DNA of 64,000 nucleotides, from the NCBI GenBank assembly GCA_000004695.1, contig CM000151.3, forward strand, positions 1,440,001 to 1,504,000, read 5' to 3'. Made by a program: the position numbers and the translations under genes. The stretch is from Dictyostelium discoideum (taxonomy: Eukaryota). Positions within the stretch are counted from its first letter, which is position 1. Every line of letters starts with the position of its first letter. Below, piece by piece: positions 12,059 through 60,320 of the stretch. The notes beneath the pieces were generated by a model, which made no database searches, had not been told where the DNA came from, and was given only the letters and a program-made list of their open reading frames with translations.

Positions 12059-15000
12059 ATGACAACATCAACAATTGAAAATGGAGCATCATCACCAATT
12101 ATTGTATCATCATCAACACCAAAACTTTATCAAGAAGGAGCAGGAGTATGGATACCAGATCAAGAATTAGGATGGATTGGAGCAGATGTAATTGAACATT
12201 CAGAGACATCAGCAGATCAAGTATTAGTTAGAACAGAGGATGATAGAGAAGTGAAAATACCATTAAGTAAAGTGTTTCAAAAGAATCCAGATATATTGGA
12301 AGGTGTTGACGATTTATCATTTTTATCACATTTACACGAACCTGCAATCTTACATAACCTCCATCACCGTTATAATTTGAACCAAATCTATACATATATT
12401 GGAAAGATTTTAATCGCAATCAATCCATACACATCATTACCACTGTATGGAAAGGAGATGATCAGTGCCTACTATGGTAAACAATTGGGTACATTAGCAC
12501 CACACGTTTATGCCGTAGCTGAAGATGCTTTCAAAGATATGCGTTATGATGGTACAAGTCAATCAATTTTAGTATCTGGTGAATCGGGTGCTGGTAAAAC
12601 TGAAACTACAAAATTCTTATTACAATATTTTGCTGCGATGGGTAATATGATTAAAGAATCAACATCATCATCATCAATAAATGGAATTAATACATCATCT
12701 GACGGTATCCCAGTAACACCACCACCTTCACCAATGAAAAAATCACCTGTTGATAAATCGGTTGAAGAAAGAGTTTTAGAAAGTACACCATTATTAGAAG
12801 CATTTGGTAATGCTAAAACTTTAAGAAATGTAAAAAAAAAAAAAAACAAAAAACAAAAAACAAAAAACAATTATCATTTATCATTTTCTAACTTTTATTA
12901 TTATTATAAATATTATAGGATAATTCATCTCGTTTTGGTAAATTCATTGAAATTCATTTTAATGAAATGGGTTCAATTATTGGTGCAAAAATTTTAACAT
13001 ATTTATTAGAAAAATCAAGAATTGTAAGACAAGTTTATAATGAAAGAAATTATCATATATTTTATCAAGTAAGTAATAGTATTTATATATATATTATATA
13101 TATAAAATATAAAAATAAAATTATTAATTTTTTTTATTTTTTTTTTTTTTTTTTTATTTTTTTTATTTTTTTTTTTATTTAAAAAAGTTATTATCAGGTG
13201 CATCAGAAGAATTAAAAGAAAAATTAAATTTAAAAACAATTGAAGAATATAGTTATTTAAATAAGAGTGGATGTTTTGAAATTGAAGGTGTATCGGATGA
13301 AGAGCATTTTAATAAGACATGTCATGCAATGCAAGTTGCAGGTATAACATTGGTTGAACAAGAGAATGTATTTAGAATATTATCAGCGATTTTATTGATT
13401 GGTAATTTTGAATTTGAAAATATAGCCGGATCAAATGATGATAGTTGTCAATTGATTGATCGTGACCCATTGGAGAAAGTATCGGTATTGTTAGGATGTG
13501 CACAACCTGATGAATTGTTGAATTCAATGTTAACACGTAAAGTGGTGACGGGTAAAGAGTCGTACATATCACATAATACAAAAGAGCGTGCTGAGAATGC
13601 AAGAGATTCATTGTCAATGTTTTTATATGGTATGATGTTTGATTGGTTGGTTGTGAAAATCAATTCAAGTATGTCGATTTCAACACAACAAAAATCCAAA
13701 TCGTTCATTGGTGTATTGGATATCTATGGTTTTGAATCGTTTGAAGTGAACGGGTTCGAACAGTTTTGCATCAATTATGCCAATGAAAAGTTACAACAAT
13801 TATTTAATCAACACGTTTTCAAAGAGGAGCAACAGGAGTATATAAAGGAGAAGATCGATTGGTCATACATTGATTTCAATGATAATCAAGATACTTTGGA
13901 TTTAATTGAAAAGAAACCCATTTGTATATTGACCTTACTCGATGAGGAGACTATGTTCCCCAAGGCCACACCTCAGACATTGGCAACTAAACTTTACTCA
14001 AAAATGACAAGTCATAGTAAATTTGAAAAGCCACGTTTCTCATCGACTGCTTTCACAATCAATCATTATGCTGGTAAAGTAACCTATGAAACTGATCAAT
14101 TCCTTGACAAGAATAAGGATTTCATAATTCCTGAACAAATTTCAATTTTACAAAGATCAAATTTCTCATTCATTAAAGTGTTAATGTCACATTCTGATAA
14201 GTTCACTCAATCACCTGGTGGCCATCCACAAGGTAATGGTGGTCCAACTTCTTCCAATACAAAGGGTACTTCAGGTTCATCGTCAATGAAATTCCTTTCT
14301 GTTGGTTCACAATTTTCAACATCACTTGCAACTTTAATGAAAACTATTTCAACTACAACACCACATTACGTTCGTTGTATTAAACCAAATCCAGAGAAAT
14401 TACCTCAAACTTTTAATAAACAAGATGTAATTCATCAATTACGTTGTGGTGGTGTTATGGAATCTGTTAGAATTTGTTGTGCAGGTTTTCCAACTCGTAG
14501 ATTATTATCTGAATTTTATCAACGTTATAAAATTTTATATGTAAAAGATATTAATACTGGCAGTGGTGGTGGTAAGAAAGGTTCAAATAATAATAAAATT
14601 AAAGATCCAAAAATTTTAGTTCAAAATTTATTAACTGGTATTGAATTATCAGATGATAAATATAAGATTGGTTTAACAAAAGTATTTTTAAGAGCTGGCC
14701 AATTGGCAAGTTTAGAAGATATGAGATTGGAGCAATTGGATCGTAGTGCAACAGTTATTCAAAAGAGATGGAAAGGTTATTTATATCGTAAACGTTATAA
14801 ACAACTTAGAGATGCATCATTGATAATTCAAACTAAACTTAGATCAGTACATGCAAAACAACAATTATCAGCATTACAACGTACTCATTCAGCCATTTTA
14901 ATACAAAAAGTTTGGAGAGCTCATAGGGATAGAGTTCAATATCAAAAGATTAGAGATGCTTCATTACAATTGCAAACTGTAATGAGAAGACATTTATTCT

Positions 15001-18000
15001 CTGAGCAAGTTCATAGGGAAAGATGTGAGAATGCAGCAATCATCCTACAAACAAAGATTAGACAAATCCTATCAAAGAGAGAAGTTGATAAAAAGTTACG
15101 TGGTATCATTTTAATTCAAGCAAGATGGAGAATGAAATTGGCCAAAAGGGTTTACATACAATTAAGAGCCGAAGCAAGATCATTGCGTACCGTTCAAGAG
15201 CAAAAGAATAAACTTCAAGAGAAACTTGAGGAATTGCAATGGCGTTTAACCTCTGAAGCAAAACGTAAACAACAATTGGAGGATCAAAAAGTTAAATCTG
15301 ATACAACCATTAGTGAGCTTTCAAGTAATAATGATCATCTCGAATTACAATTATCAGAGATTCAATTGAAATATCAAGAATTGGATAAATCAAATCAAAG
15401 CAGTCAATTACAATTATCTGAATGTTTATCAAAACTAGAGGAACAAACTCAACAATTAGATCATTCAAGTAAATTAAATAAAAAACTTGAGAAAGATTTA
15501 TCTGATCAACATGATTCCATCGAGAAATTACAATCACAATTTAATGAAACTGAACAACAATTACAACAATTTAAACAACAATCTGAGGAATTATCAAGTA
15601 AATTATCAAAAACCACTCAACAATTGGATTTCAATAAACAAGAATTTGATAGATTATCTCAAGAGAGAGATACTGATAATACAAATAATCAATTAGAGAT
15701 TCAACAATTAAAGAAAGCAAATTCAACTCTAGAAGAGGATTACTTTAGTTTATCAGGTATTAGAGATAATTTAGAGAGACAAGTATTGGAATTACGTGAT
15801 GAAAATCAATTAATAAAGGAGAGATTAGATTCATTGGGTCAACAATCCTCTCAGTTCCAAAGTGGTGCAGCATTAGAGAAACAACAATTGGAACAATTGG
15901 TTCAAGAACAATCTGAACAATTAATTAAACTTTCCTCAGAGAAATTGGGTAGTGAGGAGGAGGCAAAGAAACAAATCAATCAATTAGAACTTGAACTTAC
16001 TGATCATAAATCTAAATTACAAATTCAATTACAATTGACTGAACAATCCAATGAAAAGATAAAGAAACTCAAAGGTAAATTAGAGGAATATCAAGATGAA
16101 AAGAAACAATTACAACAAGAGCTCGAAAGAATTAAACAATCAAAACAATCGGTTGAAGATGAAAAGAATTCATTAATCACTCAATTAACAACGGTCAAAT
16201 TTGAAAGTACTCAAGTTTCAACCAATGTATCTCATCAAAAAGAAAAGATCACCACATTGAAATCTACAATCGAAGAATTGAATAAATCGATTGGCAAATT
16301 ACAAGCTGAACAAAAGAATAAAGATGACGAGATACGTAAGATTCAATTTGAATTAAATGATCAAAAACAACAATTCACTAGACAAACCAAAGAGTTTTCT
16401 GATCTTCAATCACAACAATCAATCGATAGACAAAAATCAGAGATTACAATTCATTCATTAGAGAGAACCAATGAAACTTTGAAATCCGATTTCGAACGTG
16501 TTCAACAATCATTGAAACAACAAGAGAGAGATTGTCAACAATATAAAGACACAATCAATAGATTAGAGAATGAGGTTAAACAATTGACTCAATTGAAAGA
16601 ACGTTTCGAAAATGAATTCTTTGTTGCAAAGGAACAAAATTCAAATCAAACTCAAGAATCTGTTTATCTAAAAGAGGTTACCACTCAAATGCAACAAAAT
16701 CAATCACGTATCGAAAGAGAATTAGAGGAAAAGAAACAACATATCACTAGAATCGACGATGAACGTGATGAACTCAAGAAACAATTGACTCAACTTCAAC
16801 AACAACATGAACAATCTTCAACTCAATTGCTATTGGCTCAAAATGAATTGGAACGTCTTAGAAAGAAAGAACTAAAATATAAAGAACGTGGTCATGAAAC
16901 TTCCAAACAACAAGATCAATTCAATATGGAGATTCAATCATTACGTATCACCAATAATGATCAATTGAAATCTTTACAAGATTATGAACAAGAGAAAAAG
17001 AAACTCAAAGATAAACTTTCATCCTCTAAACAAGAGGCTCAACAACAACGTGAATCAATCATTAAAATGGATGCTGAATTATCTGCAATTAAACAACATT
17101 CGCAATGGGTTGAAAATTCTTTCACCGATATGAAACAAAGAAATCAAGAACTCATTGAATCAAGTGCACTCTATAAACAACAATTGTTACAACAAACTTC
17201 AACAATCGATTCAACCATCAAAGAGAAAGAGAATGAAATTTCAAAATTACAACAACAACTTGAAACTTCAAATCAACAATTACACCAATTGAAAGAGGAA
17301 TTAAATTCAATGAAACAATCCAATCAATTAGAATCCACCGAACAATCTAAACAATTGAATCAACTCATTCAAGAGAATCAACAATTGAAATCGGTCACCA
17401 ATGAAATCTCTAAACAATTGGATGATGCTGTCTTTGAGAATCAAAAGATTAACAATACAATCAAAGAACAAGAGATCAAATCAAAGAGAATGTCTGTCGA
17501 ATTACAACAACATATCGATGAAGGTAAACAACAAGAGATTCAACAATTACAATCTACAATAGCTCAATTGAAACAACAACAACAATCTGAAACTGATCGT
17601 CTAGAAAAAGAAATTCAACAAATGAAACGTGAAAGAGAAACTCAAATGAAATTGGTAGAGTCTACAAAATTAAATTATCACATGTTGGAGGATCGTATGG
17701 AACTCTATAGAAATGTTATGGAGATCATTGATTACAAAGAAACTGAATGGGAGAAATTGGCAAGATTGGCCGGTTGTAAAGAATTGGATACAAAATTACT
17801 CTCTGATTTCCTTTTATCTTGTAAATTAGAACATACTAGTTTAGGTAGTCAAATGTGGTTCCATCAAATAGATTATTGGTGTCCTTATGAAAGAGACTCA
17901 AGTAAAGGTATCTTTTATGGTATCATTAGATCAATAGTTGATTTCACAATTAAAAACTTTGATGATGTTGATCTTCTCTCCTATTTATTGGCTTGCTGTT

Positions 18001-19004
18001 CTCTTACACTTTTCCTTTATAAAAAGAATTTAGTTAAACATTTAAATGGTGCAAATTCAATTATGCCAATCATACCAACATTGGGAGATTTAGAAGAATT
18101 AAATGAAAGATTATCACATCAATCATTAACAACTAGTGGTAAATTCTCTGGTGGTGGTGGTGGTGGTGGTATTGATTTCATTGATCAATTACAACAAAGT
18201 ACTGGTATAACTTTTGGTTTAATATTTAAAGCTACAACTCTTAAATTATCACCATTGGTTGATGGTGCAATTTTAAATGAAAATTATAATAAGAAATTAA
18301 CATCAATCTCTGCTTCTTCATTTGGTAGTGGTAGTTTTGGTCTTGGTTCTAATGGTGTTGGTAGTGTATTATCAATTGAATTGATTACAACTTATCTCTC
18401 TTCAATCATTACAATATTCCAACATCGTATGGTACATTTTACATTATCACAAAGATTCTTTAATCAAGTATTTTGTTGGATTGGTGCTTTAATAATGAAA
18501 GGTTTCATGTTGAGACAAACTTTTTGTACAGAAACATTTGCTACCTTTGTTAAAACAAAGATTGACTTTTTAACTAGATGGGCCGATGATATTGGTAATG
18601 TTTGGGTTGGTGATGTCGCTAATGCTTTCCAACAAGTTAGAGAGGTCATCAATGTTTTAAATATTAAAGATAAAGAAAAGATCATCGATGATAAAATACG
18701 TAAACAATATTGTCCAACTTTAAATTCAAATCAATTGAAACAAGTCTTATCTTTATTCTCTCCTGGTGAGTTTGGTGGTAAACGTGTCTCTGCTAAAGTT
18801 ATCGCCTCCATTTGTCCACCAAATAAATCCTCTGCTGGTCAATCCTTTGTTCAAGATGAAAACAAATTAAATACAATTCCAATTGATTCTTTACATTATT
18901 TAGAAATTCAAGATATTAAAACACTTTCTTTACCACTCTCTATAAGACAAACAATTGAAACTGAAATCATTAATTTAAAACAACAAATTGCTTGTAAAAA
19001 ATAA
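12059..19004 (+). CDS. myoJ: Class V-type unconventional myosin heavy chain, 2245 aa. It has a motor domain, six IQ motifs, a roughly 1000-aa coiled coil and a C-terminal DIL (dilute) cargo-binding domain. Exons: 12059..12829, 12919..13068 and 13188..19004.
   Basis: Motor-domain motifs are GESGAGKTE and [12 protein letters not shown]|[14 protein letters not shown]...NYHIFYQ|LLSGASEE. The two tiny introns have donors GTAAAAA at 12830 and GTAAGT at 13069, and acceptors tag at 12916-18 and cag at 13185-87. IQ motifs ([14 protein letters not shown]..., [14 protein letters not shown]... and others) fall near nt 14750-15180. A long Q/E/K-rich heptad region follows, then a DIL-like tail (...[42 protein letters not shown]...). 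The exon sum is 257+50+1938 = 2245 aa, which is the length I recall for Dictyostelium MyoJ (Myo5B). The symbol is assigned from memory of that length and domain order, not from a search. Confidence 0.8.
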
Positions 19005-19248: not shown

Positions 19249-19990
19249 AAAAAGACATCCTGTTTTTAAATAATTTAGTATTTAAAATTAAATAAATCAA
19301 ATAATAAAATTATAAGAGTATTTGATTAGATGAATTGGTCGAAGGAGCTAAGATTCGGAAGCACCGATTTTTGGAATATAATATACTTTTCCAGCTAATT
19401 TTCCTTAATTAATTTAAGGAAATTGTTTGGGTCTTTAAATTTGTATGAAAGTTTAAATTTTTTTTTTTTTTTTTTTTTCATTAATATTTATTAATCACAG
19501 TTTATCCATCCATAATTAATGGTTTTATCTATTTATTTTAATTTTAGAAAGTAAAGAAGATACTCCTTTTATTCATTTGATTTTTTTTTTTTAGGATTGA
19601 TGAGATCAATTTTCTATAAAAAAAAAAATCAGTTGCTTAGATTGATTGATCGAATGAGACAGGATTCGGGAGCACTGATTCAGGAATACAATATACTTTG
19701 CAAGTTAGTTTCCTTTAATAAAATCATTTAGGTCATTAAAATTTCTCTGATCTCTTTAAATCTTTTGCTTTTTATTATTTAATTCTTGAGTAGTTTATAG
19801 CATTTATTAAATTAGGTCGTTGTAATTCTAATGTTCCCTTACATTAAAGAAAAAATGACCATGTGGGTCTAGATTTTCTTTATGGTGGAGAAGTTCAATG
19901 GTGAACTTCTTGCATGATTTTTTTTTTTTAACTTAATATTAAAAATAAGGATTAACCAAGTAAGATAAAGAAAAGCACTTCCCAATTTAA
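19249..19990. repeat. Series of oligo(T)-tailed modules, oligo(A) on the minus strand, including two diverged copies of a roughly 90-bp core (about 19322-19410 and 19640-19730)
   Basis: Copy A reads gattagatgaattggtcgaaggagctaagattcggaagcaccgatttttggaatataatatacttttccagctaattttcctt. Copy B reads gcttagattgattgatcgaatgagacaggattcgggagcactgattcaggaatacaatatactttgcaagttagtttccttt. They are about 75% identical. T-runs sit at 19229-19247, 19441-19466, 19581-19590 and 19911-19921. The modules lie just 3' (minus sense) of the TRE-like element. Confidence 0.5.
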
Positions 19991-20128
19991 TCAACATTTT
20001 TTTTTTTTTTTTTTTTTTGATATAAATAAACTATTGTAGTATACGATTAGTATGTTATTTTTATTTATTTATTTTAGGTTTTTTAGTTTTTGTGAATTTA
20101 AAATGGTATGTTATTTTAGATTAGGTAA

Positions 20129-23100
20129 TTAATAATTAATTGGTGGTGTAATTGTTGGAATTGGTTCATTTGTGTTTATGCTCCATTCTTTTTTAAATTT
20201 TTTGATTGTTTCGGACCATTGGGTTTCTTTTTGAGTTTTTGTGAGGTTGTTTTTAATTGAGTATTGGTTGAAGTTTGATAATGTTCTTGAATATTCCAAT
20301 CTTATTAGCTTGTGCCATTTTGATTTTAATATATCATAATCTAGTGTTGTGTTGTTTATTTGATTGTTCCGATTATCAAATGATTGAGTTATATTGATGT
20401 CAAATAATGATTTGCATAACCATATCCATATTTGGTGAATAACTAATGAGATTATGTTCCAATATGCATGTGTTCTGACTAGATCAAGATTTGTGTTTAT
20501 ATAATTCCAGTTGAACCTGTATTTTTTATATTGTGCGTTTTCTGCAAAATGAAAATTAATATTGATAGTTGGATCTGGTTTAAATGCTTTGTTGTTTGTT
20601 TGTGGTTTATAAATGAGTGTGTATAATTTTGTTGTTTGGTTTTTTGTTAGTGACCAGTTTTTGTTTCTATTGCAATTTTTATATAAAAAATATTTTAATT
20701 TGTCGTGGTTTATGAAGTTGATTGTGTGCTGACAATTGAAAAACAAATGACCATAGGGATCATTATTCATTTCATTGTTGCAAATGGGGCAAACTTTGTT
20801 GTGTAGATGATTAATTGGAAGACATCTAGCATGGAATCTTTGCATTGTATCACGGCCTTTTGGATCTTTTAATTTTTGAATTTTGACAAATAGTTGGTCG
20901 TATGTGTATTTCCATAATAGTTGTATTGATTGTTGGTGCGAAGTAAGAAGTAGATCTGAATATTTCTTGCCAACATAGTCTTTTGATTTGCATTGGTGAT
21001 TGTTGAGTATTGTCGAGTAGAATTCTTTGAGTGTTGGTGGTAGTGAAATATTATTTGTGGTTAATGTTAGAGAGGTTTGGTTTTTTATTAATATTGGTTG
21101 TAGGATTTGAACTTTATCTTTTAGATGTCCAATTTGAGTTGCATAGTTTTCCCATTTTTTTGATTTTTATAAGGTATGGAGAAGAGATTGATTTGTTGAT
21201 GATTTGATCCATCCAACTTATCATGTATATTGAATTGTTTGCAGATTTATGCATTTGTAAAAATCTGTTGTATATCCAAATCTTTTGAGCAACTTGTCGT
21301 AATTGTATATTCCACATACCCCAACCACCTTCTTTTAATGGTTTTAATGATCTATCATAACACATCAAAGGTATTTTTGCACGGAATGGATGGTTGATGT
21401 GTTGTTTTTAATGGAATTGGTATTAGAGTTGGTGATTCAGAATTTGCGGGAGAATTCATAAACCATGAGATTAATTTATTAATTTGAATTTCTTCATCTT
21501 TTGTAAATTCTTCAAGGTATGATAAATATGTTATTGGTGATAGTGAGTAGGTGTTTATGATGGTTGTTTTTGTTTTTAATGTTGTGCCACTAGTTTTCCA
21601 TAGTACTAATGATTTAATCAGTGTTTTCATTGTTTCTGGTAATTTCCTATGTAAACCCCCTATGATTAAAGAAATAGCCAAGGACTCTTTCTGATTGATC
21701 TTTTTTGGTTATTGGGATTCTTTTTGATTGTGGAATGTTGTTTATTATGTGTTTATCAGTGATTTTGTGGGGGTTGATTTCTATTATTGCACTTTTGTCA
21801 AAATTTAATGATGATGATGTTGAAGCGCAGAAATTATCGAAATGTTTGATTGATTGTTGTTGTTGTTCGTAGTTGATGTTGTATGTTGTAGAGTCGTCTG
21901 CAAATTGGGTAAATTTGATTTTAATTTGTGGATTGGGTGAAATTGGTAATCCAATTATTGAATTGTCTGCATTTATTGTTCTTGCTAATATTTCAATTAC
22001 AATTACAAATAAAGTGGCTGAGATTGGGTCACCTTGTTTTACACCTCTTTTAATATCGAATTTTCTGGTCGTTTTACCATTAATTGAAATTTTTGCTTGT
22101 GAGTCAGATAATAGCTTGTGGATTAAATTTATTAATTTTATTGGTATACCAATATGAATTAATGTTCTTTTAATGCTATCGTGAGAGATAGAATCAAATG
22201 CTTTAAAGAAGTCAAATAGTGTGATGATACCAGGGAGGTTTTTAGATTTGAGGTAGTTGATTAATTCATTGATGTTGATGATGTTGTCTATGATGAATCT
22301 GTGGGGTACGAAACCAGTTTGGTTGTTATTGATGATGAAAGGAAGTATTCTCAGAAGACGTGCATTGATTACTTTGAGAGGGATCTTGTAATCAGTGTTT
22401 AGAAGTGTAATGGGACGACGATTTGATATGAGTAAGGGGTTGCCTTTCTGGTATATTGTGTGTATAAGACCTTCGGTGAATTCTGTTGTGATGTGGTGTG
22501 GATTTTCTAGTATATCGTTGAATAATGTAGTGAGAATTGGTTTAACTTGGTTTAAATGATTAATGTAAAATGCATTTGTAACTCCATCTGGACCGGGTGA
22601 TTTGTTGGGGTTACTGGTTTTAATTGCAGCTTCAACTTCATCTTTTATAAAAGGTGAGTCTAAACCATTCCAATATTCATTTTTTATGATGGGCCATGTG
22701 TTTAGCATGAGCTAGTGAGTAATTGGACAACATATTTGTAAGCTATATAGATTTGTGTAGAATTCAACAAAAGCATTTTCAATTTGGTCGGGGTCGGATG
22801 TAATGATGTTTCCATATTGGATTGATTCAATTTTTGCATCTTTTGATCTTTTGTTTAGTATTGCTGATAGATACTTGCTAGGTATTTCTCCATTTATATG
22901 TTTTTTTAATATGTTTGTGTGGTTTTGATGTAATTTGTTTTTGTTACATATAATATTGTATTCAGTGATGCATTGTTCTTCAAGATGTTTGAATTTTGCT
23001 GCTTTTTCTAATAGTATTTGTTTTGCACGTTGAGTTTGTTTGTCTTTGTTATATTGATAGTTTTTTAGAGTTTTAATAATTTTTGATTTTACTTTTGACC

Positions 23101-23953
23101 AATTTGTAAATTGATTGTTGATGTGTTATTGTGATTAGTTATTAAATGATTGATAATATTGATTGCTTCATGGTCATTTGCAGTACCAGGTGATAATATC
23201 CATCTTTTCTTATGTTTATTTATTTGAAAAGGTGAAGAAATTGTTGTTGATATTGGATTATGATCTGATAATGAAGATGGAATTTGGTGGACTTGTGTAT
23301 ATATATTTTCAGGGTCTATTCTATTGTATTGAGTATATATTCTATCTAATCTGTTACCATGTGTATGAGTTGGAGTGGTTTTTAAATTCACCTTGATCAA
23401 TTAGATGGTGTTGGTATGTGTAGGATTGGATAATATCATCTAATAGTGAATTGTCGTTGTGGATACAGTTGAAATCTCCTGCGATAATAGATACATGTTG
23501 GGATTGGTTTGGTATTGGGTTTGTTGAGTGGTTGTGGAGAAGTGTTTGTAGTGAAGTTGCATATGAATTCTTTTTGATGGTATTATTTGATGCTGGTGCG
23601 TAAATTCCAAGAATACCAATTGGTAATTGATTTGGAAATATAACGTCTGCTAAAATAGCTCTACCATCAATTGTTGATATGTGTTTGAGTTTGAGTGTGT
23701 TTGGGTTATGGTTAATGATGATTACACCATTTCCTCGTTTGGTGACAGAGATGATGTGATCGGGAAAATCATGTTTAAGTTGTAATGGTGATGAATTGAG
23801 TTCAGTGAGTATTGAAATTGTTGGACGCGGTGTAAGTTTTGATATAAGTAGTTGTAGTGTGTCAACAGGTTTTTGGTAGGAATTGTGGTGATTGTTGGGG
23901 TTTTCAGTGAATCCTCTACAATTCCATGTTATAAAGTTGATTTTTGAGCTCAT
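20129..23953 (-). pseudogene. TRE-like ORF2 with endonuclease, reverse transcriptase and a C-terminal Cys-rich domain, broken by multiple frameshifts
   Basis: The six-frame pieces are 23354..23953, 23089..23400, 21647..22708, 21355..21681, 21114..21368 and 20129..20845, all on the minus strand. They are collinear but fall in different frames. Confidence 0.7.
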
Positions 23954-25156
23954 ACCTTACTAGGTTTGGAAGCACCAGTATTGACTGGTTGTGTAGTCAG
24001 GGCATTGCTGCTTCTTCTTGGATTTATTGGATTTGGAGTTGGTGCACTTGGTTTGTTTGGTTGAGATTGTAGAGGTTTTTGTGGTACAATTGTTGGATCG
24101 GTTGGATTGCTCATTGATAATGAGTTTTTCCCGTTATTATTATTTGAAGAATCACTTTTGTGTGAAATTTCATTATTGTTTTGGGATTGATTGTTAATAT
24201 CAAGTGATTCATTTAGTATAGCTTTTGAACCACTATTTTGAAGTGAGTTATTATTGCGATTGGAATTTGCAATTTCGTTGATTGGTGGGGTGTTAATGTT
24301 GTTTTTTGGTGGTTGATTGTTTTTGTTCATGTTTGGGTTTGTGATGGCATTTTTTATAGTTGTTGCCATATCTGCATTTTTTGCATGTTGAATTTTGTGT
24401 TTAGTGACACTACGTGTTGCAGCTTTGATATATCTTGTGATACCAGATGGTTGTTCGATCTTTTGATCAACAATGTTGTGTGTGTGATCAATTAGATGAT
24501 ATGTTATAATGTAACTTTTAAACGCAACAGCATATGAGTATGTGACAGTAAATGATTCAATTGATGTACAACTGGTGAATTTAGTGAGGTTGTTTGTAAT
24601 TGCCTCGTTTGCATGTTTGGGTGAGTACGTTTTAATGAATGTTTTAATGATTGCATAATCATTTGATGATATATCGAATCTATAGTTGAGTTTGTCGATA
24701 TTTAGTGCAAGTTGGTTTTGAAGGTTGATTATTGAAGTTAATTTATCAACGTTGCAATTTACGAAGGCAGTTGCACCAATTATTTTAAATGCTGATGGCG
24801 ACAGTATATCTTCGAAGAGTTTGTGAATGTTTTTGTGAATTTGTTGGATTCTTGTGTCATCTTTAGAGGTTAATTCTTCACGGATGTGTGGTTGATTAAA
24901 GTAACACTTAATGTTGATGGTGTTATTGTTTTTTTCTAAGAAAGAGAGTGGTCTTGTGATTGATGGAGGTGCAATGATATCTAATTGATTATCAAGTCCT
25001 TTGTTTAGTGAGAGTTGGTTTGTTGGGGTTTGTTTTTTAGGTGTGTCGATTTTTGCACTTTTGTTTTTTGTTGTTGAGGTTGTGGAGGTATTATTTGTAG
25101 GTTGTGTTGTTATCTGTATGATTTAACTGTAATTCAGTTGAGTGATCATCAGCCAT
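23950..25156 (-). pseudogene. TRE-like ORF1 with one apparent frameshift near the N-terminus
   Basis: The minus strand reads ATGGCTGATGATCAC... (MADDHSTELQLNHTDNNTTYK*). From the +1 frame a continuous frame follows: ...NNTSTTSTTKNKSAKIDTPKK...HAKNADMATTIKNAITNP...ASKPSKV, ending at 23950. Confidence 0.55.
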
Positions 25157-25311
25157 TGTTGAAAAGTATATAGGACGATAGCCCTTGCTTTATTGAGCAA
25201 AAAAAGGGTAAAATTAAGAGGAATGAATGTGGCGGTGAAGATATAACAGTGATTTATTTATTATATGTATAAATTCTCGTTTATTTCTTTGTTTTTTCGG
25301 TATCAACATAT

Positions 25312-25322
25312 AGAATCGAACC
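25312..25322 (-). promoter_or_regulatory. External B box (exB, GGTTCGATTCT) about 29 bp downstream of tRNA-Phe
   Basis: The minus-strand sequence GGTTCGATTCT matches the B-box consensus GGTTCGANTCC. Dictyostelium tRNA genes often carry a second, external B box downstream (established knowledge). Confidence 0.6.
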
Positions 25323-25350
25323 GGCGATCATACCAACAATTAAAAAAATT

Positions 25351-25424
25351 TGCCTCAGGCCGGGATCGAACCAGCGACCTTAAGATCTTCAGTCTCACGC
25401 TCGTACCAACTGAGCTACTAAGGC
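25351..25424 (-). tRNA. tRNA-Phe, anticodon GAA
   Basis: The minus-strand sequence GCCTTAGTAGCTCAGTTGGTACGAGCGTGAGACTGAAGATCTTAAGGTCGCTGGTTCGATCCCGGCCTGAGGCA folds as a cloverleaf with a 7-bp acceptor stem, the D-loop AGTTGGTA, the anticodon loop CTGAAGA and the T-loop TTCGATC. It is 74 nt with discriminator A, is followed by a T-rich Pol III terminator, and has no encoded CCA. Confidence 0.9.
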
Positions 25425-50716: not shown

Positions 50717-52243
50717 TTAATTTTTAAAAATAAATTTCACAATTTCAAAATAACATTTCCTAATTGCTTGATCAATTGTTGGTTTTGGATTGTTTTCAAT
50801 TTTTTTTAATTTGTTTTTTGATAAATAAAATTCAAATGATTTAACATCACCATTAAATAAATTATCAGGTGAGAAATTTTCATTTACAACTTGATCGTAA
50901 TTGGAGATAAGTTGTTTATTTTCATATAAATATTTAACAATTTCAAATTTACTTGTAAAACATTCAATTGGATATTTAAAATCTTTTTTATATTTAAATA
51001 TAAATTGTATGAAAATATCAAGGTATTCAATATCAAAAAGATTATTTGTAATATTTTCTACTACTCTTTCTAATAGTTTTATATTATTTAAAACTATTGA
51101 ATTATTATTATTATTATTTTTAATTAAAGATTGAAATTCTTCTTTTGATGGATTGGATGAAAGGCTTGATAAAATTATATTAATGTTGACATCGGTTAGT
51201 GAATTTAAATCTTCAGAGTAGTTAATGTTACACATTGACACACCTGATTTTAATTGTAAATTTTTAACGAAACCACCCCAAATATATTTGACAACTTGGA
51301 AATCCAATGGTTTTTGTAAATCACTACCATTGACCAAGAGAAAAAGTTTAGAAGAATTGATTTCAATAGTAGGATTTCTTGGGACAATGCCCTGCTCAAT
51401 TAAAAGTTTTGCAAATTCCATTGAAGAGAATTTACATGCAACTTGAACTAATACTTCTTTTGAAAAATTCGATATTAATTTTTTAAATTCACTTGTTGTT
51501 AATAAATAAGTGAAATGTTTAACTAAATTTCTTTTGACCAATGAGTATAATAATACTTGTAATTTATCCACACCACCATTAAGTTCAATATCTTTTTTAT
51601 AAAATTGAATTTGTTCTAAAAATATTTTATAATTTTCACTTTCGCCAAAAGGTATTAAATTATTAATTTGATTGGTATTATGCACTATTTGAGGACCCAA
51701 AGTGAAATTGAACATTGGTTGGTTGTTTTCATCTTTTTCTCTTTTTAAAAATTGAAAAATTTCAAAATTTCCATTAGTTGATGCTGCAACATTTAATATT
51801 GTTTCTTTATTTTTTAAAAATTCTGGGTTCGATTTAAAATAGTGGTAAATTAATTTAAATCTTTGAAATGACAATTCTTTATAACTTAATAAAAGATGGA
51901 ATTCATTATCTGCAACGTTGCAGATATTATCTACATTTTGATCTTGTAACCTTAATTGACAATACCAATATTTTGCAGGATTTTGAATTGCAACTTTAAA
52001 AAAAAAGTCAACAAAATAATTGAATACTTGATACATCTTTTTTTTTAATAAAATTCCCAAGTTTAAATCTTGTGTTTTCATTGACTCTGTAATTTTATCA
52101 TAGATACTATAGTCTAAAAAACCTCCATCTTTTGAGTCTTCAAACATTTGTTCATATTTGACATATCCCCATATAATTTTTGAAATAACTAAATTATTGA
52201 ATACTTTTTTATATAATTTATACATTTTTAAATTAAATTCCAT
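50717..52243 (-). CDS. Hypothetical protein, 508 aa
   Basis: An intact ORF with no recognisable motif. It is separated from the downstream ORF by an in-frame stop and has no convincing splice donor. Confidence 0.4.
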   Translation of the reverse strand: MEFNLKMYKLYKKVFNNLVISKIIWGYVKYEQMFEDSKDGGFLDYSIYDKITESMKTQDLNLGILLKKKMYQVFNYFVDFFFKVAIQNPAKYWYCQLRLQDQNVDNICNVADNEFHLLLSYKELSFQRFKLIYHYFKSNPEFLKNKETILNVAASTNGNFEIFQFLKREKDENNQPMFNFTLGPQIVHNTNQINNLIPFGESENYKIFLEQIQFYKKDIELNGGVDKLQVLLYSLVKRNLVKHFTYLLTTSEFKKLISNFSKEVLVQVACKFSSMEFAKLLIEQGIVPRNPTIEINSSKLFLLVNGSDLQKPLDFQVVKYIWGGFVKNLQLKSGVSMCNINYSEDLNSLTDVNINIILSSLSSNPSKEEFQSLIKNNNNNNSIVLNNIKLLERVVENITNNLFDIEYLDIFIQFIFKYKKDFKYPIECFTSKFEIVKYLYENKQLISNYDQVVNENFSPDNLFNGDVKSFEFYLSKNKLKKIENNPKPTIDQAIRKCYFEIVKFIFKN

Positions 52244-52517
52244 TTGCTAAAAAAAAATAAAAAAAAGAAAAAAAAAATAAAAATTTTAAACTTTTTCAAA
52301 AACAAATTATTTTTTTTTTCTCTTTTTTTTTTATTTATTAAAATAATTAAAAAAAAAATTTTCGTCCAATTTGATGTTTTTTTCTAATTTTCTTTTTTTG
52401 TTTATGTAATAATAATTTTTTTGTAATAGTTTGGAATATAAAAAAATTAAATTTTTTTTTTTGAATTGAAAAAAAACAAAATTTGATCGGTTTAAAAAGT
52501 TTTTCAAAATATCGATA

Positions 52518-52590
52518 GCTCGATTAGCTCAGTCGGCAGAGCGTGGTGCTAATAACGCCACGGTCGCAGGTTCGATCCCTGCATCGAGCA
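52518..52590 (+). tRNA. tRNA-Ile, anticodon AAU
   Basis: GCTCGATTAGCTCAGTCGGCAGAGCGTGGTGCTAATAACGCCACGGTCGCAGGTTCGATCCCTGCATCGAGCA folds as a cloverleaf with acceptor GCTCGAT/ATCGAGC, the D-loop AGTCGGCA, the anticodon loop CTAATAA and the T-loop TTCGATC. It is 73 nt. Confidence 0.9.
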
Positions 52591-52623
52591 ACGATATTTT
52601 AAAATATTGTGAAATAGATTACA

Positions 52624-52634
52624 GGTTCAATTCC
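52624..52634 (+). promoter_or_regulatory. External B box (GGTTCAATTCC) 34 bp downstream of tRNA-Ile
   Basis: Matches the B-box consensus GGTTCGANTCC. It is the same arrangement as at tRNA-Phe. Confidence 0.6.
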
Positions 52635-52696
52635 CACTTCTGAAAAAGGGAAATAAAGATCCTGGAAATTAAAAAAAAAAAAAAAAAAAAAAAACC

Positions 52697-53961
52697 AAAC
52701 AACAAAAATGCTAGTGGATTTCAAGTTATTAATTTAATGAGAACCAAAAGAGCAAGATACCCACTAAAAGTAGGGGGCTGGAACATTTGGAATATAGAAT
52801 TGAGACAACTGGCGCAGAAACTTTGGATCATAAACCAGTTCATCCTAGCACTAGAAACCAAACAAACAAACTCATCTCATCACAAAAGCTGGGAATATCA
52901 GATCCAAAAAAACAAATTCACATCCAGATACCTAAAAGAAAACTTAGACGAATGGAACAAAATAAGAATAAAAAAAGCAATTTTCAACAATAATCTCACA
53001 TCCATAAAAAACGAAAATGGACAACCACTTTCACTGGCAGAATGGTATACCACAATTCAAGACCAAAATCCACCATCCCTAAAACGGAATTCCAATCATC
53101 TCTAAACTTAAGAGGCTACAGCTATAATCAACTCTTCAACAACATACTGAAGATAAAAGACCCTAAAACAAGAGACACAATGTTTAGATTCCATGCCAGA
53201 TGCCTTCCAATAAACTACCTTCACAACAAACAATGCCCACTCTGCAAAGAAGATATGAGCAAAGACCCATACGGTCACCTGTTCTTCTCATGCAAGAAAA
53301 CAAAACAATTCATAAAAATAAATAAACTCAAAAATTTCATCTATATTACCACAGGCAAAGGTAAAAACTGGCACCATACAAGAATTAGGCAAAATAACAA
53401 TTTCATTAATAGAATAACTCCAAAATTATCACCGATAGCCAAAAAAGATCAAGAAGTGAATGCAGATTACGCCAACCACAGATTCCACAAAGAATACTTT
53501 GAATGGAACTATAAAGCAATAGACTATGATCTAACCAGATCATTCGCATATAGAAACCTAATGGCCCTTATCCTCCACAACATTTGGATTTGGATTTGCA
53601 ATCAAATATACAGTGAAGATCCTTTAACAAATGAATCACTATCATACAGCTCCCTTCTAAAGAAATGGCACAAATTGGCCACTCTAGAATACATCAAAAA
53701 AGCAAAAGATCTAAAAAACTTATCAGCAAAAGACCATAATAACTTCAAAGATCCTAAGATCCTTCTCACCTCAACGATCAAGCTAAGAAAAACAACAGCT
53801 AATTACTATTGTATTCCAGAATCATCTCTCCCAAATATTATATCTTTTGATCAATTCATATGATTAAAATAACCCTTCAGCTTAAATGATAAGCCTATAA
53901 ATAAATATTAAATAAAAACTCGTATTAACACAGATGGATATATATCAATCTTGTTAATCCA

Positions 53962-53995
<34 letters not shown>
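52697..53995 (+). mobile_element. 5'-truncated fragment of a TRE3-like non-LTR retrotransposon. It holds the ORF2 C-terminal Cys-rich region, a 3'UTR and an A29 tail, downstream of tRNA-Ile and its external B box.
   Basis: The ORFs at 52737..53105 and 53042..53863 are about 35-40% identical to the C-terminal ORF2 pieces of the 20129..21368 element (MFRFHARCLPINYLHNKQCPLCKEDMSKDPYGHLFFSCKKT against MQRFHARCLPINHLHNKVCPICNNEMNNDPYGHLFFNCQHT). They sit in two frames, so there is a frameshift. The 3'UTR is about 100 bp and is followed by an A-run at 53967-53995. The flanks read aaaaaaaaaCCAaac (52669-52699) and aaaaaaaaaCCAtct, which may be an A-rich target-site duplication. Confidence 0.7.
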
Positions 53996-53997
<2 letters not shown>

Positions 53998-54767
53998 ATC
54001 TGATAAAGAATTTTAAAATATTATATATTTTATTTTAAAATTCTTAATTAGATTATTTTAAAAAAATAATACTTGTATGACACAATATTTAAAAAAAAAA
54101 AAATAAAAAAAAAAATTGTATTATCTTATTTATACCAAATTTTTCTTTAACATTAAATAATTCAAATAAAAATCGACTCAATTAAAATAAAAAAAAAATT
54201 TTAGATAAATATTAAAAATAAAAAATAAAAAAACAAAACAAAACAAAATAATTAGCAAATTAGTAGTTATAAAATTTTGATATCTAACCCAATTTCGTTA
54301 CCAAATATATTTATAATTAATTAATTAATTTTTTTGACTTTTAATTTTAAAGCAAAAAGGAATTTTGAAGGACCGATTCATTAAAATTTAGAATATTAAA
54401 TTTTTTTTTTATTCTGAAGTATAATAATAAAAATAATATAGATACCCCCCTACCTCTAACTGAAAAAATAAAATAAAATCTATAAATAGTGGTAAGTATC
54501 TAATTTAAGCAAAGATTAATTAATAAAGTTTAGGTATTTTTTTCGGATTTTTTTTCTCTTTTAAAAAAGTAGAAAAAAAAAAAAAAATCTAAAATCTACT
54601 TGTTTAAATTTGTCATTGACCAATGATATAAAAACATAGATATTTTTAAATTTCTTTTACTTCAAAAACTTGTATTAATTTGAAATAAAATTTAATATAC
54701 TAACAAAATTTTTTTTTCTGAGTGAATAATTTAAAGAAAAAAAAAGTTTAAAAAATCATGGAATTTC

Positions 54768-56718
54768 ACTCAACAAAAACCGAAATTAAAGAACTAAATT
54801 TACAAGTATGTAAAGAATCCGATATTGCAATCATAGGTGTTGGATTTAGATTACCAGGAGATAACAACGAACTAACTGAACTCTGGAAAAATTAAAAATG
54901 TGTTTTCGATGGGATTCAAGAATTTGAAAATGAAAGAATAACAAAAAATTATTCAATTCTCGACCAATTTAGTAGCAATAAAGCTGGTTTGGTAAATTTT
55001 GAACAATGGAAAAATTTCGTCCCAATTTTTTTTGGTATTTCAAATTCAGAATGTTCAAATATTGATCCACAACAAAGGTTATCATTAATATCGACTTGGG
55101 AAGCCTTGGAAGATGCTCATTTAGACCTGTTGAACTACGTGGAACAAATACGTCAGTTTTTATGGGTAGTTTCTCAATTGATTATACTCATGGTTTAAGA
55201 GATAGAAGTGATTCAAAACCAAATACTCTTGCATCAAATTTTCATTGCCTTTCAAATCGTATTTCATAATGTTTTGATTTGAGAGGTCAATCATTATCAA
55301 TTGATACTGCATGTTCATCATCTTCAAATGCAATTATTTCAGGATGTAAAACAATCATTGATGGTTCTTCAAACATTTCTATATGTGGTGGTTCAAATCT
55401 AATTATTGATCCATGTTTCTCAAATTCAATTTCATCTCAAGGAATGAATAGTCATTTGGGTCATTGTATGTCATTTGATGCTTCTGCCGATGGTTATGTT
55501 AGAAGTGAAGGATGTGGAATTTTAGTTTTAAAGAAATTATCTGAACCAATTAAATATGGAAATAAAATCTATTGTGAAATAAAAGGTTTTAGTTCAAATA
55601 ATGATGGAAATGTTGAAAAAGGTAATTTCTTTGCTCCTTCAGTTCTTGGTCAATTTTTAAATATAGAATTGGCTTTCAAATCAACCGTATTACCAGATGA
55701 TATTTATTTTGTAGAATGCCATGGTACAGGTACACCAGTTGGTGACCCAATTGAATTAGAATCAATTTCTAAGGCTTTAAAAATTTCTATTTCAAGATCA
55801 CCAAATTCACCATTATTAATTGGCTCATTTAAATCAAACATTGGTCATACTGAAGCAGCATCTGGTGTTGCATCATTAATAAAATGTTGTTTAATGTTTC
55901 GTCATCGTAAATTGGTTCCAAATATTAACTTTAATAAACCAAATCCAAGAATTAATTTTAAAGATTGGAATTTAAAAGTTGTTACTGAAAAAATATCATT
56001 CCCAAAAGACAAACAAATTTCAATAATTTTGGTGTTACTGGTTCAAATACATGTTTTATTTTATCTGAATACATTGAAGATAATAATAACAATAATGAAA
56101 TGGAAACTACAAATTTGTTAGAAAATGACGAATTTTTAATTCCATTCTCATCAATGACAAATAAGTCAATGGAAAAATATAAAAATCAAATCGAAAAATT
56201 CTAAGTCAACCAAATGGATTTTGTTGAATTTGTTTCAAAACAAATTTGTACGAAAACAACTCAATTAAGTCAAAGATCAGTGGTTTTTTCAAAATTAAAT
56301 TGGGAAGGTTATAATAAAGAAAGTATTTCAACTCAATCAAATAAAGTTTCAAATTTTATGATTAAATCAATTGAACCAACTGTTGTTTTTGTATTTCCTG
56401 GTCAAGGTCCACAATTTAATAAAATGGGAATTGAATTATATGAAAAAGAACTTGATTTTAGAAATTCAATGGATGAAAAAAATGAAATCTTTAAATCATT
56501 ATATGGTTATTCTGTTTTTGATAAATTAAGAAGTATTAAGGATGATGATAAAACTTTAATTGATTTACCATCATTTGGACAACCTGCAATGGTAATGATT
56601 GAAATATCATTATTTAAATTATTAAAAAATCATTGGAATATTCAACCATCTTTCATTGTTGGTCATAGGTATTTATAATTTTTTTTTTTGGAAATTAAAA
56701 TTAATTAATCATCCAAAT

Positions 56719-56758
<40 letters not shown>

Positions 56759-59700
56759 TTAATAGTTTAGGTGAAGTGGCTGCATCATTTTGTTCTGGTA
56801 TGATAGATTTAGAAACATGTTGTAAAATAGTTTATGTTAGAAGTACTTTACAAGATTCACTTGTTGGATTTGGTAAAATGTTATCTGTAACAATTACTAA
56901 AGAAGAATATAATAAAAATTATTTATCACAATTCCCTTCATTAGGAATTGCATGTTTTAATTCAAATAATTCAATTGTAATTTCTGGTAATGAACAAGAT
57001 TTAATTAAATTATCAAATCAATTAAAATCAAATTCAAAACCAAATTTATTTTTAGGTGCAAATGTCTCATATCATTCTTAAAGTCAAATTAAAATTAAAA
57101 ATGAAATGATTTCTGGTATTGGTCAGTATAAAAGTAATGAAGCAGTAACTCCAATAATTTCAACTTTAACATGTGAATTTTTTAATCCAACTCGACATCC
57201 ATTTAATGCTGAAAATAATTTTAAAAGTTCAAAATCACCTGTTTACTTTAAAGGAGCAATTGAAAGTTTATATAAACATATTGAAGATAATAATATTGGT
57301 AGTGGTGCAGTAACATTTGTTGAAATTCCTCCTCATCCAGTTTTATCATTTTATTTAAATGAATTAAAACCACAAAATTCAAATCATTTTTCACCAGATT
57401 CAATTTCAATTTTACCAACATTAAATAGAAAAAAAAATGATATAAAAGAAATTCAAAAAACTGTTTCAACTTTATATTGTCAAGGTTGTAATGTTAATTT
57501 TAAATCTCAATTCAATGGTATCAATAATATGAATGGTATAATTAACGTAAATAAAATATAATCAAAAGATTTACAAGATATCAATGGGATTTACAAAATT
57601 ATTGGAATGAAACATATGAAGCTTATTTGAATAAAATTAATGGTCCACCAATTACAATCTTGGGAAATTCAAATAGTTTAACCTCACCTTTAATTTCAAT
57701 GACAACTTTAAATGATATTTCAAAAGAACCATTCCATTGATCATGTTGTAAACGGTAAATTTTATTTCCCAGGTTGTGGTTATATAGATAATATTTTAAA
57801 TCTTTACCCAAACCAAGATTTATTAATTGAATATTTAGAATTTAAACTTCCATTTATTTTAAAAGAAAACAAAAATTTTGAAATGACAACAAATATAACT
57901 CAAACTGCACCAAATCAAAATAATGTTTATTTTCATATTAAAGATCAAAAAACAAATCAATGGGTTCAAAGTTCAAGAGGTAATTTTTCAGTTTTTAAAA
58001 AACAATTTTCCAATTCTCCCCGACCAACAATAAATAAATACAATATTAAATCATTGAAATTAGAACATAACTATAGTCATTTGTTAAAATCAGATTTTTA
58101 TGATTATGTAAAAAAAATTACAGGAATTAATTTCAAAGGTTGTTTCCAACGTGTTCAAGAATGCTGGATTGGAGAAAATTATTCTATTTTGGTTAAAATT
58201 TCAACTAATAATTTATTATCAGTTCATGATAACAAAGTATTTTTAAACCCATCAATAATTGATAATTGTTTACAAGGATTTTTTGTATCATCATTTATTG
58301 ATCCAAGTGTTGCTGTATTTGATAGAATTGAACATTTAAAAATTTATTCTTCAAATATTCCAAATGTTTCATCAAAGTTTAATGATGAAGAAACTTTTAT
58401 TTATGCAATTGCTAAAAATAATACAGATAGTAGTTTACCAAGTAATTCATTTAGTGGTTCAGTTGTTGCATTTTCAGAGAATGGTCAAATAATATTAGAA
58501 TCAAAAAATGTTATTGGTACATCATTAGTACCAGTTACTGATTGTACTATACCAGAATATCCAACTGAAGATTTTTTTTCATTTATTCTGGAGCCAATTG
58601 ATTCACAAATTTCAATAACACTTCCAAATCAATCAGTTAATGAGTTTGAAAATGAAAAGAACTCTCAACTAATCGATAGTTCAATCTATAAAAAGATGAT
58701 TTCAAATTTATTATTTAATAATCTAAAATTAAGACTTTCAAACCAAATTTCAAAAGAATTATTATTTAACAATTCTGTTGATCAATTATTAAAATTATTT
58801 TTAAACAAAGCCAATTCAAAATATTCAAGATTATTACATTTTGTTTTTGATACATTAAAAGTATCGATAGATGATTTGGATGAAATTAAATGTGATTTTA
58901 CAGGTTCAAGTGAACAATTATTATTTTCAAAATCATCAAAAATCATTTTAAAATTATTATTCCCAAGACCAAACATGATGATGAAAATCAAGATACACCT
59001 CAATCATTATTAGATAGTGGATTAATTGATAATTTATTTTCAAAATTAAATTTTGATATTTATTCATTATCAATTGCAAAAAAAATAATTTAATCAATTA
59101 AACCACTTTTGGACAACCAAACATTAAATTTTGAAAGTTCTTTCCAATCATAATCATTTAAACCATCTTATTATGATATTATTGCATTATCAAATGTTTT
59201 ACATGTAAATGATATTCAATTTAGTATCGAGCAAATTAATGGATTATTAAAATCAAATGGTGATCTATTATTTATAGAAATACCAAAATCAATAATTTAT
59301 TATATAACATTTGTTAGTTTTGAACAATGGTGGATTTTTTCTGATTACAACATTAGAAATGATAGATGTTGTATGGATGCAGATAATTGGGTAAAAATAT
59401 AATCAGTAAATGGTTTTAAAAATTCAATAATATCAAGTTCAAATAATTCATCACTTCCATTTATAATTCAAACTAAAAAACAAGAATTATTATTTGAACC
59501 AATTAACCAACATATGGATTTTGATATTATTTTATATACTGGCAATAGTAATGAAAATTCAAAAATTAATGATTTTATTAGTTTAATGAAAAATGAATTG
59601 TTTTTAAATAATAATGGTAAAATTAATATAATAAAAACAATTAAAGAACTTAAAAATCAAAAAATTCAAGATGAAATCAAATCAATTATTTTTTTTTTAC

Positions 59701-60320
59701 CATCAATTTTACCATTGGAAATGAATAATTATAATGAAACCTCATTGAAATTATTTGAAATGGGTCAATTCTTAATTGATAATAATAAAACTAAATGGAA
59801 AATTGTGGTAATTTCAGAAAATTCTCAATCAGAATCAATTAATTATTTAAATTCATCAGTTTTCGGTGTAATGAAATATTTTGAAAATACAAAAATCACT
59901 GTTTATTCGTTAGATTATGATAATCAATCAATTTCAAATATTGGTTAAATAAACAATTAATTCTTTAATATTAAATTCAAATAAACATATTCAAATAGAG
60001 TATATAATAAGGGAAAATAAAGTTTACTCGGAAAGATTGTATAGAGAATCTATTGATAAAACATTTTCAGTAAATTTCAACAATCAAATAAAAGAAAATA
60101 TATATGCAAAATTAAATACATCATTACAATATGAATCTAACTAACTTTAATATAATATAAATTTAAAGAATATGGCGCAGATAGTCTTCATGCTACAATC
60201 TTTAAAAATATGATTGAAAAACAATTCAACCAACTGAATATTTTAACAACTTCGCAAATCCAAACATTAACAATTAAATCAATAATTAAAATTAATGAAA
60301 AAGTAACAAAAAAAAAATAA
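54768..60320 (+). pseudogene. Decayed type I iterative polyketide synthase pseudogene. KS, AT, DH, a methyltransferase/KR-like region and ACP remnants remain, but the gene is broken by in-frame stops, frameshifts and large internal deletions.
   Basis: The KS region reads IAIIGVGFRLPGDNNELTELWKN*, with a TAA where a sense codon is expected. A frameshift sits near 55150. NRIS*CFD carries a TAA for Tyr at about 55265. The KS active site is DTACSSS and the His motifs are ECHGTGTPVGDPIE and NIGHTEAASG. GVTGSN is lost by a frameshift at about 56030. In the AT domain the GHSLGE motif spans a 97-nt intron (56669-56765). The DH motif is HVVNGKFYFPGCGYID, preceded by several stops (57545-57720). The ACP remnant is EYGADSLHATIF at about 60170. 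The whole locus is about 5.5 kb against the 8-9 kb of an intact Dictyostelium PKS. Confidence 0.75.

Follow-up and report, generated by a model that had tools for sequence, protein, structure and literature searches.

The window analyzed here, 64,000 nt of the Dictyostelium discoideum AX4 genome (GenBank assembly GCA_000004695.1, contig CM000151.3, positions 1,440,001 to 1,504,000 of the forward strand), carries, downstream of a tRNA-Ile(AAU) gene, a dead, 5′-truncated retrotransposon copy of the type without long terminal repeats (non-LTR), which consists of the last 1.3 kb of the element and a poly(A) tail. By its downstream position, its orientation (that of the tRNA gene), its oligo(A) tail, and its tRNA-linked relatives, the copy is a member of the TRE3 elements. 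We consider it very probable that a TRE3-family element, probably TRE3-A, integrated by target-primed reverse transcription approximately 105 bp downstream of tRNA-Ile.

The fragment was delimited by alignment to two further members of its sequence family, at loci L002 (D. discoideum strain GCA_054883475.1) and L001. Positions 52694–53989 of the window are 98.9% identical, over 1297 alignment columns, to L002:7608–8903, which belongs to a longer copy and forms its 3′ part, and positions 53040–53994 are 99.4% identical to the L001 copy over 956 nt. At the 5′ end, identity to L002 begins at ACCAAACAAC, and the preceding sequence is ...ATCGGC in L002 and a run of 24 A's (A24) in the window. The start of the fragment thus lies at 52694–52698, that is, 103 to 107 nt past tRNA-Ile and 59 to 63 nt past an external B box (exB) described below, which agrees with an earlier note on this DNA, according to which the element begins soon after that box. 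At the 3′ end, the terminus ...TTAATCCAATATT is common to the window, L001, and L002, and is followed at these loci by A-runs of similar length and then by unrelated flanks. Because the 29 A's of the window (A29; 53967–53995, + strand) stand directly behind this conserved terminus, as at the two other loci, they are the tail of the element and not merely a genomic homopolymer. The latter reading, which the earlier note had named as one that would count against its proposal, was rejected on these grounds.

The body of the copy (52698–53966, + strand), recognized by its identity to L002 and L001, contains the last ~388 codons of the second open reading frame (ORF2; 52695–53860, a missing base being counted), the ORF2 stop codon (53861–53863), and a 3′-untranslated region (53864–53966). 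Like tRNA-Ile, the ORF2 tail lies on the + strand, and so does the poly(A) tail. The ORF2 tail includes a CCHC (“HC”) motif, C-x2-C-x10-H-x4-C, at 53234–53293. In a BLASTP search, the translated fragment matched DDB_G0285835 of D. discoideum AX4, a protein with a reverse transcriptase (RT) domain, at 98% identity. No Pfam domain was found in the fragment protein itself; longer members of the family match RVT_1 (P0047, E = 7.7e-34), and a match to Exo_endo_phos in another longer member, P0020, is weak (18.1 bits, under the 24.5-bit cut-off). What is left in the window is only the part of ORF2 behind the RT, without ORF1, endonuclease, and RT, and the fragment is therefore incapable of moving on its own. 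Terminal repeats were absent from the fragment, and an origin from Skipper-2 or another of the LTR retrotransposons that likewise insert downstream of tRNA genes was rejected in view of the poly(A) tail, the lack of such repeats, and the homology to a non-LTR ORF2. The earlier description of the insert as the last ~1.3 kb (ORF2 C terminus, 3′-untranslated region, and A29) of an element 5′-truncated in the manner of long interspersed nuclear elements is thus borne out by the match to the longer copy's 3′ part, and the length of the A-run is exact.

In the reference sequence, the coding part of the fragment is split into two ORFs, 52737–53105 and 53042–53863, which the earlier note suspected of being one. 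In intact copies the two are continuous, and the frame reads ...IQDQNPTIPKTEF... at the position at which the window reads ...IQDQNPPSLK.... The ORF is split because one A is missing in CCAACC near 53071, which may be a real AX4 mutation or an error in the reference assembly.

Orthologous loci from other isolates show the site both filled and empty. The insertion is also present in strain ACTFIT, at locus L005, where 6.5 kb are 99.94% identical to the window. Between 52518 and 54137 there are only two differences between this locus and the window: the upstream tract is one A shorter in L005, and L005 has one extra A at 53071. Because of this extra A, ACTFIT has an intact 375-aa gene call in which the two frames are joined. 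In strain ACTFIW (L003, flanking protein 91% identical) and in D. cf. discoideum ACTFIY (L004, flanking protein 87% identical), the tRNA-Ile(AAT) gene and the exB are kept, and no TRE sequence is present. Since both of these sites are empty, the insertion is younger than the split from those isolates.

The L004 spacer aligns to the DNA between the exB and the insertion (52635–52693, + strand) up to an interrupted A-rich tract, and it continues with GCTTCTAGAATTTA where the window has CCATCTGATAAAGAATTTTA behind the insert. The stretch 52635–52693 is thus target DNA that ends in a genomic A-tract, and because L004 has an A-rich tract at the same place, the A-tract is ancestral target DNA. The possibility that the upstream A24 (52671–52694, + strand) is the tail of an earlier TRE fragment was rejected: the 36 nt that precede it match no TRE 3′ end examined, and they align to the L004 spacer.

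The two empty loci have features of their own. In ACTFIW, about 700 bp, including a long (AAT)n microsatellite, lie between the exB and the shared right flank (L003:6860–7600); neither AX4 nor L004 has a counterpart of this stretch, and none of the sequences compared matched it. In ACTFIY, the 5′ end of tRNA-Ile is abutted by an LTR-retrotransposon gene call with RT, RNase H, and integrase (L004:3233–6806), with no TRE3 behind the tRNA gene. The position of this LTR element is the one described for DGLT-A-type elements.

The presumed target, the tRNA-Ile(AAU) gene, is transcribed by RNA polymerase III (Pol III) and occupies 52518–52590 of the + strand (ARAGORN; Rfam RF00005, 64.1 bits, E = 5e-13). 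It was the sole match in an Rfam scan of 52000–54500 and is one of two tRNA genes that ARAGORN predicts in the window, the other being tRNA-Phe(GAA) at 25351–25424 on the − strand. A search for the exact string recovered the tRNA-Ile sequence in L005, and the gene has the identical sequence in L003 and L004. A match to the B-box pattern identifies its internal B box as GGTTCGATCCC (52569–52579, + strand), and a TTTT terminator run follows the gene at 52597–52600 (+ strand). The exB, GGTTCAATTCC, is at 52624–52634 (+ strand) and was found by pattern scan; it starts 34 nt past the end of tRNA-Ile and 55 nt past the start of the internal B box. A tRNA-Ile(AAU) gene with an exB 34 bp further on, on the + strand, as previously claimed, was thereby recovered by ARAGORN, Rfam, and the pattern scan.

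The pattern GGTTCRANNCC has three matches in the 64 kb, where 0.19 would be expected; apart from the exB, it picks out only the internal B box of each tRNA gene. The box is conserved amid diverged spacer, as GGTTCGATTCC in L003 and as GGTTCAATTCC in L004. Its agreement with the consensus, its place some tens of bp behind a tRNA gene, and its conservation in the orthologues mark GGTTCAATTCC as an external B box, an additional box of the TFIIIC type. Considering both tRNA genes of the window (52569–52634 and 25312–25372), the exB starts 50 to 55 bp past the start of the internal B box and 29 to 34 nt past the end of the tRNA gene. Similar spacing was seen at L001:5933–5996 and L002:4713–4772, and a review gives the internal-to-external B box spacing as ~100 bp (PMC5911963). 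In one annotation, protein P0012 (ACTFIW_009326), the gene model reads through tRNA-Ile(AAT) and the exB (…SQSAERGANNATVAGSIPASS…GFNSH…) into a TRE3 tail; this model is an annotation artefact of that assembly.

The junctions of the insert were examined with respect to a target-site duplication, which the earlier note had suggested on the basis of A-rich flanks ending in AAAAACCA. Both junctions have the form A(n)CCA, the window reading A24-CCA-AACAAC on the left and A29-CCA-TCTG on the right, where the CCA at 53996–53998 (+ strand) is target DNA and is followed by TCTGATAAAG. A10CCA occurs only at these two junctions in the 64 kb, either strand, and no other A-run of at least 10 in the window has CCA behind it on either strand. 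This much of the suggestion holds; however, the left CCA is also element sequence, and the length of the duplication is unreadable. The longer copy reads ...ATCGGC-ACCA-AACAAC... at the break point and thus itself has ACCA there, so that the left junction (ACCA, 52694–52697, + strand) is a 4-nt microhomology which matches both the break point of the element and the ACCA behind the tail, and it would also be where the left target-site duplication ends. The A at 52694 is both the last A of the upstream run and the first junction base. The A's of the right target-site duplication are probably the last few of A29. The simplest reading that fits these observations is a short A(n)CCA duplication whose end base-paired, at ACCA, with the cDNA as the truncated 5′ end was being joined.

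These data would be explained by the following course of events. A TRE3 element would have integrated into the A-rich tract 60 bp past the exB, in the same orientation as tRNA-Ile, its site possibly being chosen through binding of the Pol III factor TFIIIC to the B box or the exB, a guidance proposed in the TRE3 literature. The element endonuclease would have nicked the T-rich bottom strand, where the T's could prime on the poly(A) tail. Reverse transcription would then have halted ~3.8 kb before the 5′ end, and the end of the cDNA would have been joined to the upstream end of the target via the ACCA microhomology, leaving a short A(n)CCA duplication.

Several observations weigh against this scenario or parts of it. 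The A's of the duplication merge with the poly(A) tail, and its length is therefore unmeasurable. The left CCA could be purely element-derived, and no recognizable duplication was found at the flanks of the truncated same-family copy in L001. There are 57 A-runs of at least 20 in the window, so that an A-run by itself proves nothing. The alignment to the empty sites is only approximate at the junction, which lies in low-complexity, AT-rich DNA. The role of TFIIIC and the exB in TRE3 targeting is a proposal, and the subfamily letter, discussed below, comes from arguments of length, relatedness, and copy number and not from reference sequences.

The points that concern the flanks could be taken to mean that there is no duplication beyond the A's and that the A(n)CCA match is coincidental, the left CCA being a Pro codon of the element, within the ORF2 sequence SAPNNK, and the right CCA belonging to an unrelated flank. 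A-runs are very frequent in the genome of D. discoideum and L001 lacks a visible duplication, as this explanation would have it; yet the absence of CCA behind all other longer A-runs of the window makes such a coincidence less easy to accept, and five further TRE3 insertions that we inspected have clear 8- to 12-bp duplications (for example, CTTGCTGCT and TTCTGGGTA in L002 and TCTAATTGGTAA and ATGCATCCA in L009, a locus with two copies of the family of the window's other element). We regard a coincidental match as unlikely. It seems less likely still, and would surprise us, that a full-length TRE3 integrated and lost its 5′ 3.8 kb later by deletion or recombination. Internally deleted copies do exist in both families compared here: the copy in L002 lacks the endonuclease region, and ~550 bp are missing from the long copy in L009, so that deletions subsequent to insertion do happen among these elements. 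However, in the window the orthologous spacer continues undisturbed on the left as far as the A-tract, and a break at an ACCA that matches the right flank is expected for the joining step of integration and would otherwise be a coincidence. The distance of 103 to 107 nt from the tRNA gene is typical of a primary TRE3 junction, and 5′ truncation is common, with only 13 of 67 TRE3-A copies being full length (PMC5006619).

Target-primed reverse transcription also yields 5′-truncated insertions with microhomology at the 5′ junction in the case of mammalian L1 elements. The fragment resembles these in its poly(A) tail, its 5′ truncation, its A-rich target, and the few bases common to the truncation point and the target end. 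L1 is not known to target Pol III genes, and TRE3 differs further in an ORF1 of its own and in a distinct CCHC domain at the C terminus. By analogy, the 4-nt microhomology at the junction hints that TRE3 5′ ends may be joined like L1 5′ ends.

The window contains a second TRE3 element, referred to as the first element because it comes first in the sequence. It is full length but frameshifted and occupies 19997–25300 of the − strand, with 5282 nt excluding the tail (25300–20019) and a tail of 22 A's. Its 5′ end, 25300, was placed by comparison with L009, where a copy downstream of another tRNA-Phe gene is ~98% identical. The stop codon of its ORF1 (23952–23950) overlaps the ATG of its ORF2 (23953–23951), and it is flanked by an 8-bp duplication, ATGTTGAT. 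The earlier note had ascribed the same architecture to the two sites. The order of tRNA gene, exB, and element is indeed the same, but the spacing differs, in that the first element begins 11 nt past its GGTTCGATTCT box and 50 nt past tRNA-Phe. In L009, a few tens of nt downstream of a tRNA-Asp(GTC) gene and ~2 kb from the long copy behind tRNA-Phe, we also observed a 206-nt 3′ fragment of the first element's family (L009:9418–9760), with the 9-bp duplication ATGCATCCA.

The two elements of the window belong, on sequence comparison, to different TRE3 subfamilies. BLASTN of the fragment against 19500–25400 (− strand) gave, A-runs aside, only a 163-nt stretch of 70.6% identity and a 78-nt stretch of 74.4% identity. 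At the protein level, the fragment's family and the first element are 38% identical by BLASTP, 41% by MAFFT, and 42 to 46% by BLASTP with the longer copies; RT identity between the two families is 46 to 61%. The earlier estimate that the ORF2 tail is ~35 to 40% identical to that of the first element, and the conclusion that different families are involved, are consistent with the 38 to 42% found, and a common family, which the note had regarded as fatal to its proposal, is contradicted by the shortness of the two DNA stretches. Although both elements have the same ORF2 tail architecture with a CCHC motif, as would be expected if the fragment were a diverged or gene-converted piece of the first element's family, each matches its own family at 98 to 99% elsewhere in the genome. 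With DNA similarity limited to the two stretches and the protein identities given above, membership of the same family was ruled out, and we give this explanation practically no credence.

The assignment to TRE3 agrees with what is known of these elements. TRE3 elements terminate in poly(A), and their ORF2 encodes APE, RT, and zinc-finger domains (PMC5006619). They lie in the same orientation as the tRNA gene, with target positions downstream of an internal or external B box (PMC5911963), and the distances of the TRE3 subfamilies from the tRNA gene range from 14 to 305 bp (PMC5006619, Table 1), ~100 bp being typical. TRE5 elements are found ~50 bp upstream of tRNA genes and in the opposite orientation (PMC5911963), and a TRE5 identity was rejected because the insert is downstream of tRNA-Ile and has the same orientation. 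No element was found in the 275 bp upstream of tRNA-Ile. TRE5-A (DRE) is a related non-LTR element which, in the same host, also targets tRNA genes but differs from the fragment in its upstream position and opposite orientation. The complete set, ORF1 together with the endonuclease, RT, and CCHC motif of ORF2 in this order, is found in the fragment's family and not in the fragment copy. A TRE is present at about 61% of the tRNA genes of D. discoideum (PMC5006619).

Judged by length, relatedness, and copy number, and not by reference sequences, the fragment is probably TRE3-A (Tdd-3). TRE3-A measures 5229 bp and has 67 copies, of which 13 are full length, at 14 to 228 bp downstream of tRNA genes; TRE3-B (5279 bp) has 43 copies, TRE3-C (4734 bp) has 29 copies, and TRE3-D is known only as 1559-bp fragments (PMC5006619, Table 1). 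The length of the fragment's family, reconstructed from partial copies, is ~5.07 kb, compared with the 5229 bp of TRE3-A. AX4 protein fragments are more numerous for this family than for that of the first element. The other sequence-checked D. discoideum matches among the best 120 all come from the first element's family, whose nearest D. discoideum relative by RT is the fragment's family. TRE3-C is reported to group with TRE5 in RT trees (PMC5006619), and TRE3-A is therefore the better fit, with TRE3-C a less likely candidate for the fragment. In sum of likenesses, the fragment shares with TRE3-A the downstream site, the tRNA orientation, the 103- to 107-nt distance, and the oligo(A) tail; its longer relatives share ORF1 and ORF2 (endonuclease, RT, CCHC), and its family is alike in abundance, being the commoner of the two compared. 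The fragment itself is unlike TRE3-A in that only the last 1.3 kb is present, frameshifted in AX4.

The first element is probably TRE3-B. Its 5282 nt fit the 5279 bp of TRE3-B. The only informative name in its protein cluster is that of a GenBank entry, AAC27746.1, which bears the description “similar to HC domain of Tdd-3 and DRE” and so is not Tdd-3 itself. The first element is of the same superfamily as the fragment and shares downstream, same-orientation targeting and an ORF2 tail with a CCHC motif with the fragment but starts 50 nt past the tRNA gene and 11 nt past the exB, versus 105 and 60 nt for the fragment.

Both other copies of the fragment's sequence family, in L001 and L002, are also downstream of tRNA genes. 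The L002 copy begins 98 nt downstream of tRNA-Thr(TGT); its ORF1 is 357 aa long, and of ORF2 an 862-aa remnant is left, without the endonuclease region. The L001 copy lies ~55 nt past tRNA-Leu(TAA) and is truncated further than the fragment in the window. Right behind the long copy in L002, a second insertion (L002:8904–8985) consists of ~20 nt of the same 3′ end and an A-run of ~27, with the 9-bp duplication TTCTGGGTA, and illustrates how a single tRNA gene is targeted repeatedly (in tandem). L001 also contains a copy of a third, degenerate TRE3-like family (L001:3440–4880, − strand), which has 65% DNA identity and ~47% protein identity to the fragment's family. It is 5′-truncated and A-tailed and is preceded by two copies of CCTTGATTCGATTCTGTACT; no detectable tRNA gene adjoins it.

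The fragment is an ordinary, already well-described case, a matter of known biology at a reference-genome locus, and it matters little beyond correct annotation. The locus nevertheless makes a clean worked example: the site is filled in two near-identical strains, two divergent isolates have it empty, and the truncated 5′ junction shows a 4-nt microhomology. It also draws attention to one base by which AX4 differs from another strain and which creates the apparent frameshift. One may further imagine that the 375-aa ORF of ACTFIT, which comprises the post-RT region with the CCHC motif, is expressed from its tRNA-proximal site and acts in trans, but we think this highly improbable. If true, the product may, for example, compete for the target complex with full-length TRE3 proteins, and the fragment would be a domesticated or regulatory one and not inert debris.

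As to the surroundings, the ORF just upstream of tRNA-Ile (50717–52243, − strand) is 100% identical to AX4 DDB_G0272134, which together with the DDB_G0285835 match places the window on D. discoideum AX4 chromosome 2. Exact-match searches with the 508-aa flanking ORF, a 787-aa ORF, and proteins P0001 and P0048 gave no hit in a protein index that does not include AX4. The G+C content in the window, 12 to 33%, agrees with this origin, and intergenic A-runs of at least 20 are typical of the D. discoideum genome. At 13329–19004 (+ strand) lies a long ORF of myosin type that has a coiled-coil tail. Downstream of the insertion, a polyketide-synthase gene, seen as several consecutive ORFs, occupies 55279–59948 (+ strand), and the orthologous gene calls contain ketoacyl-synthase, acyltransferase, and dehydratase Pfam domains.

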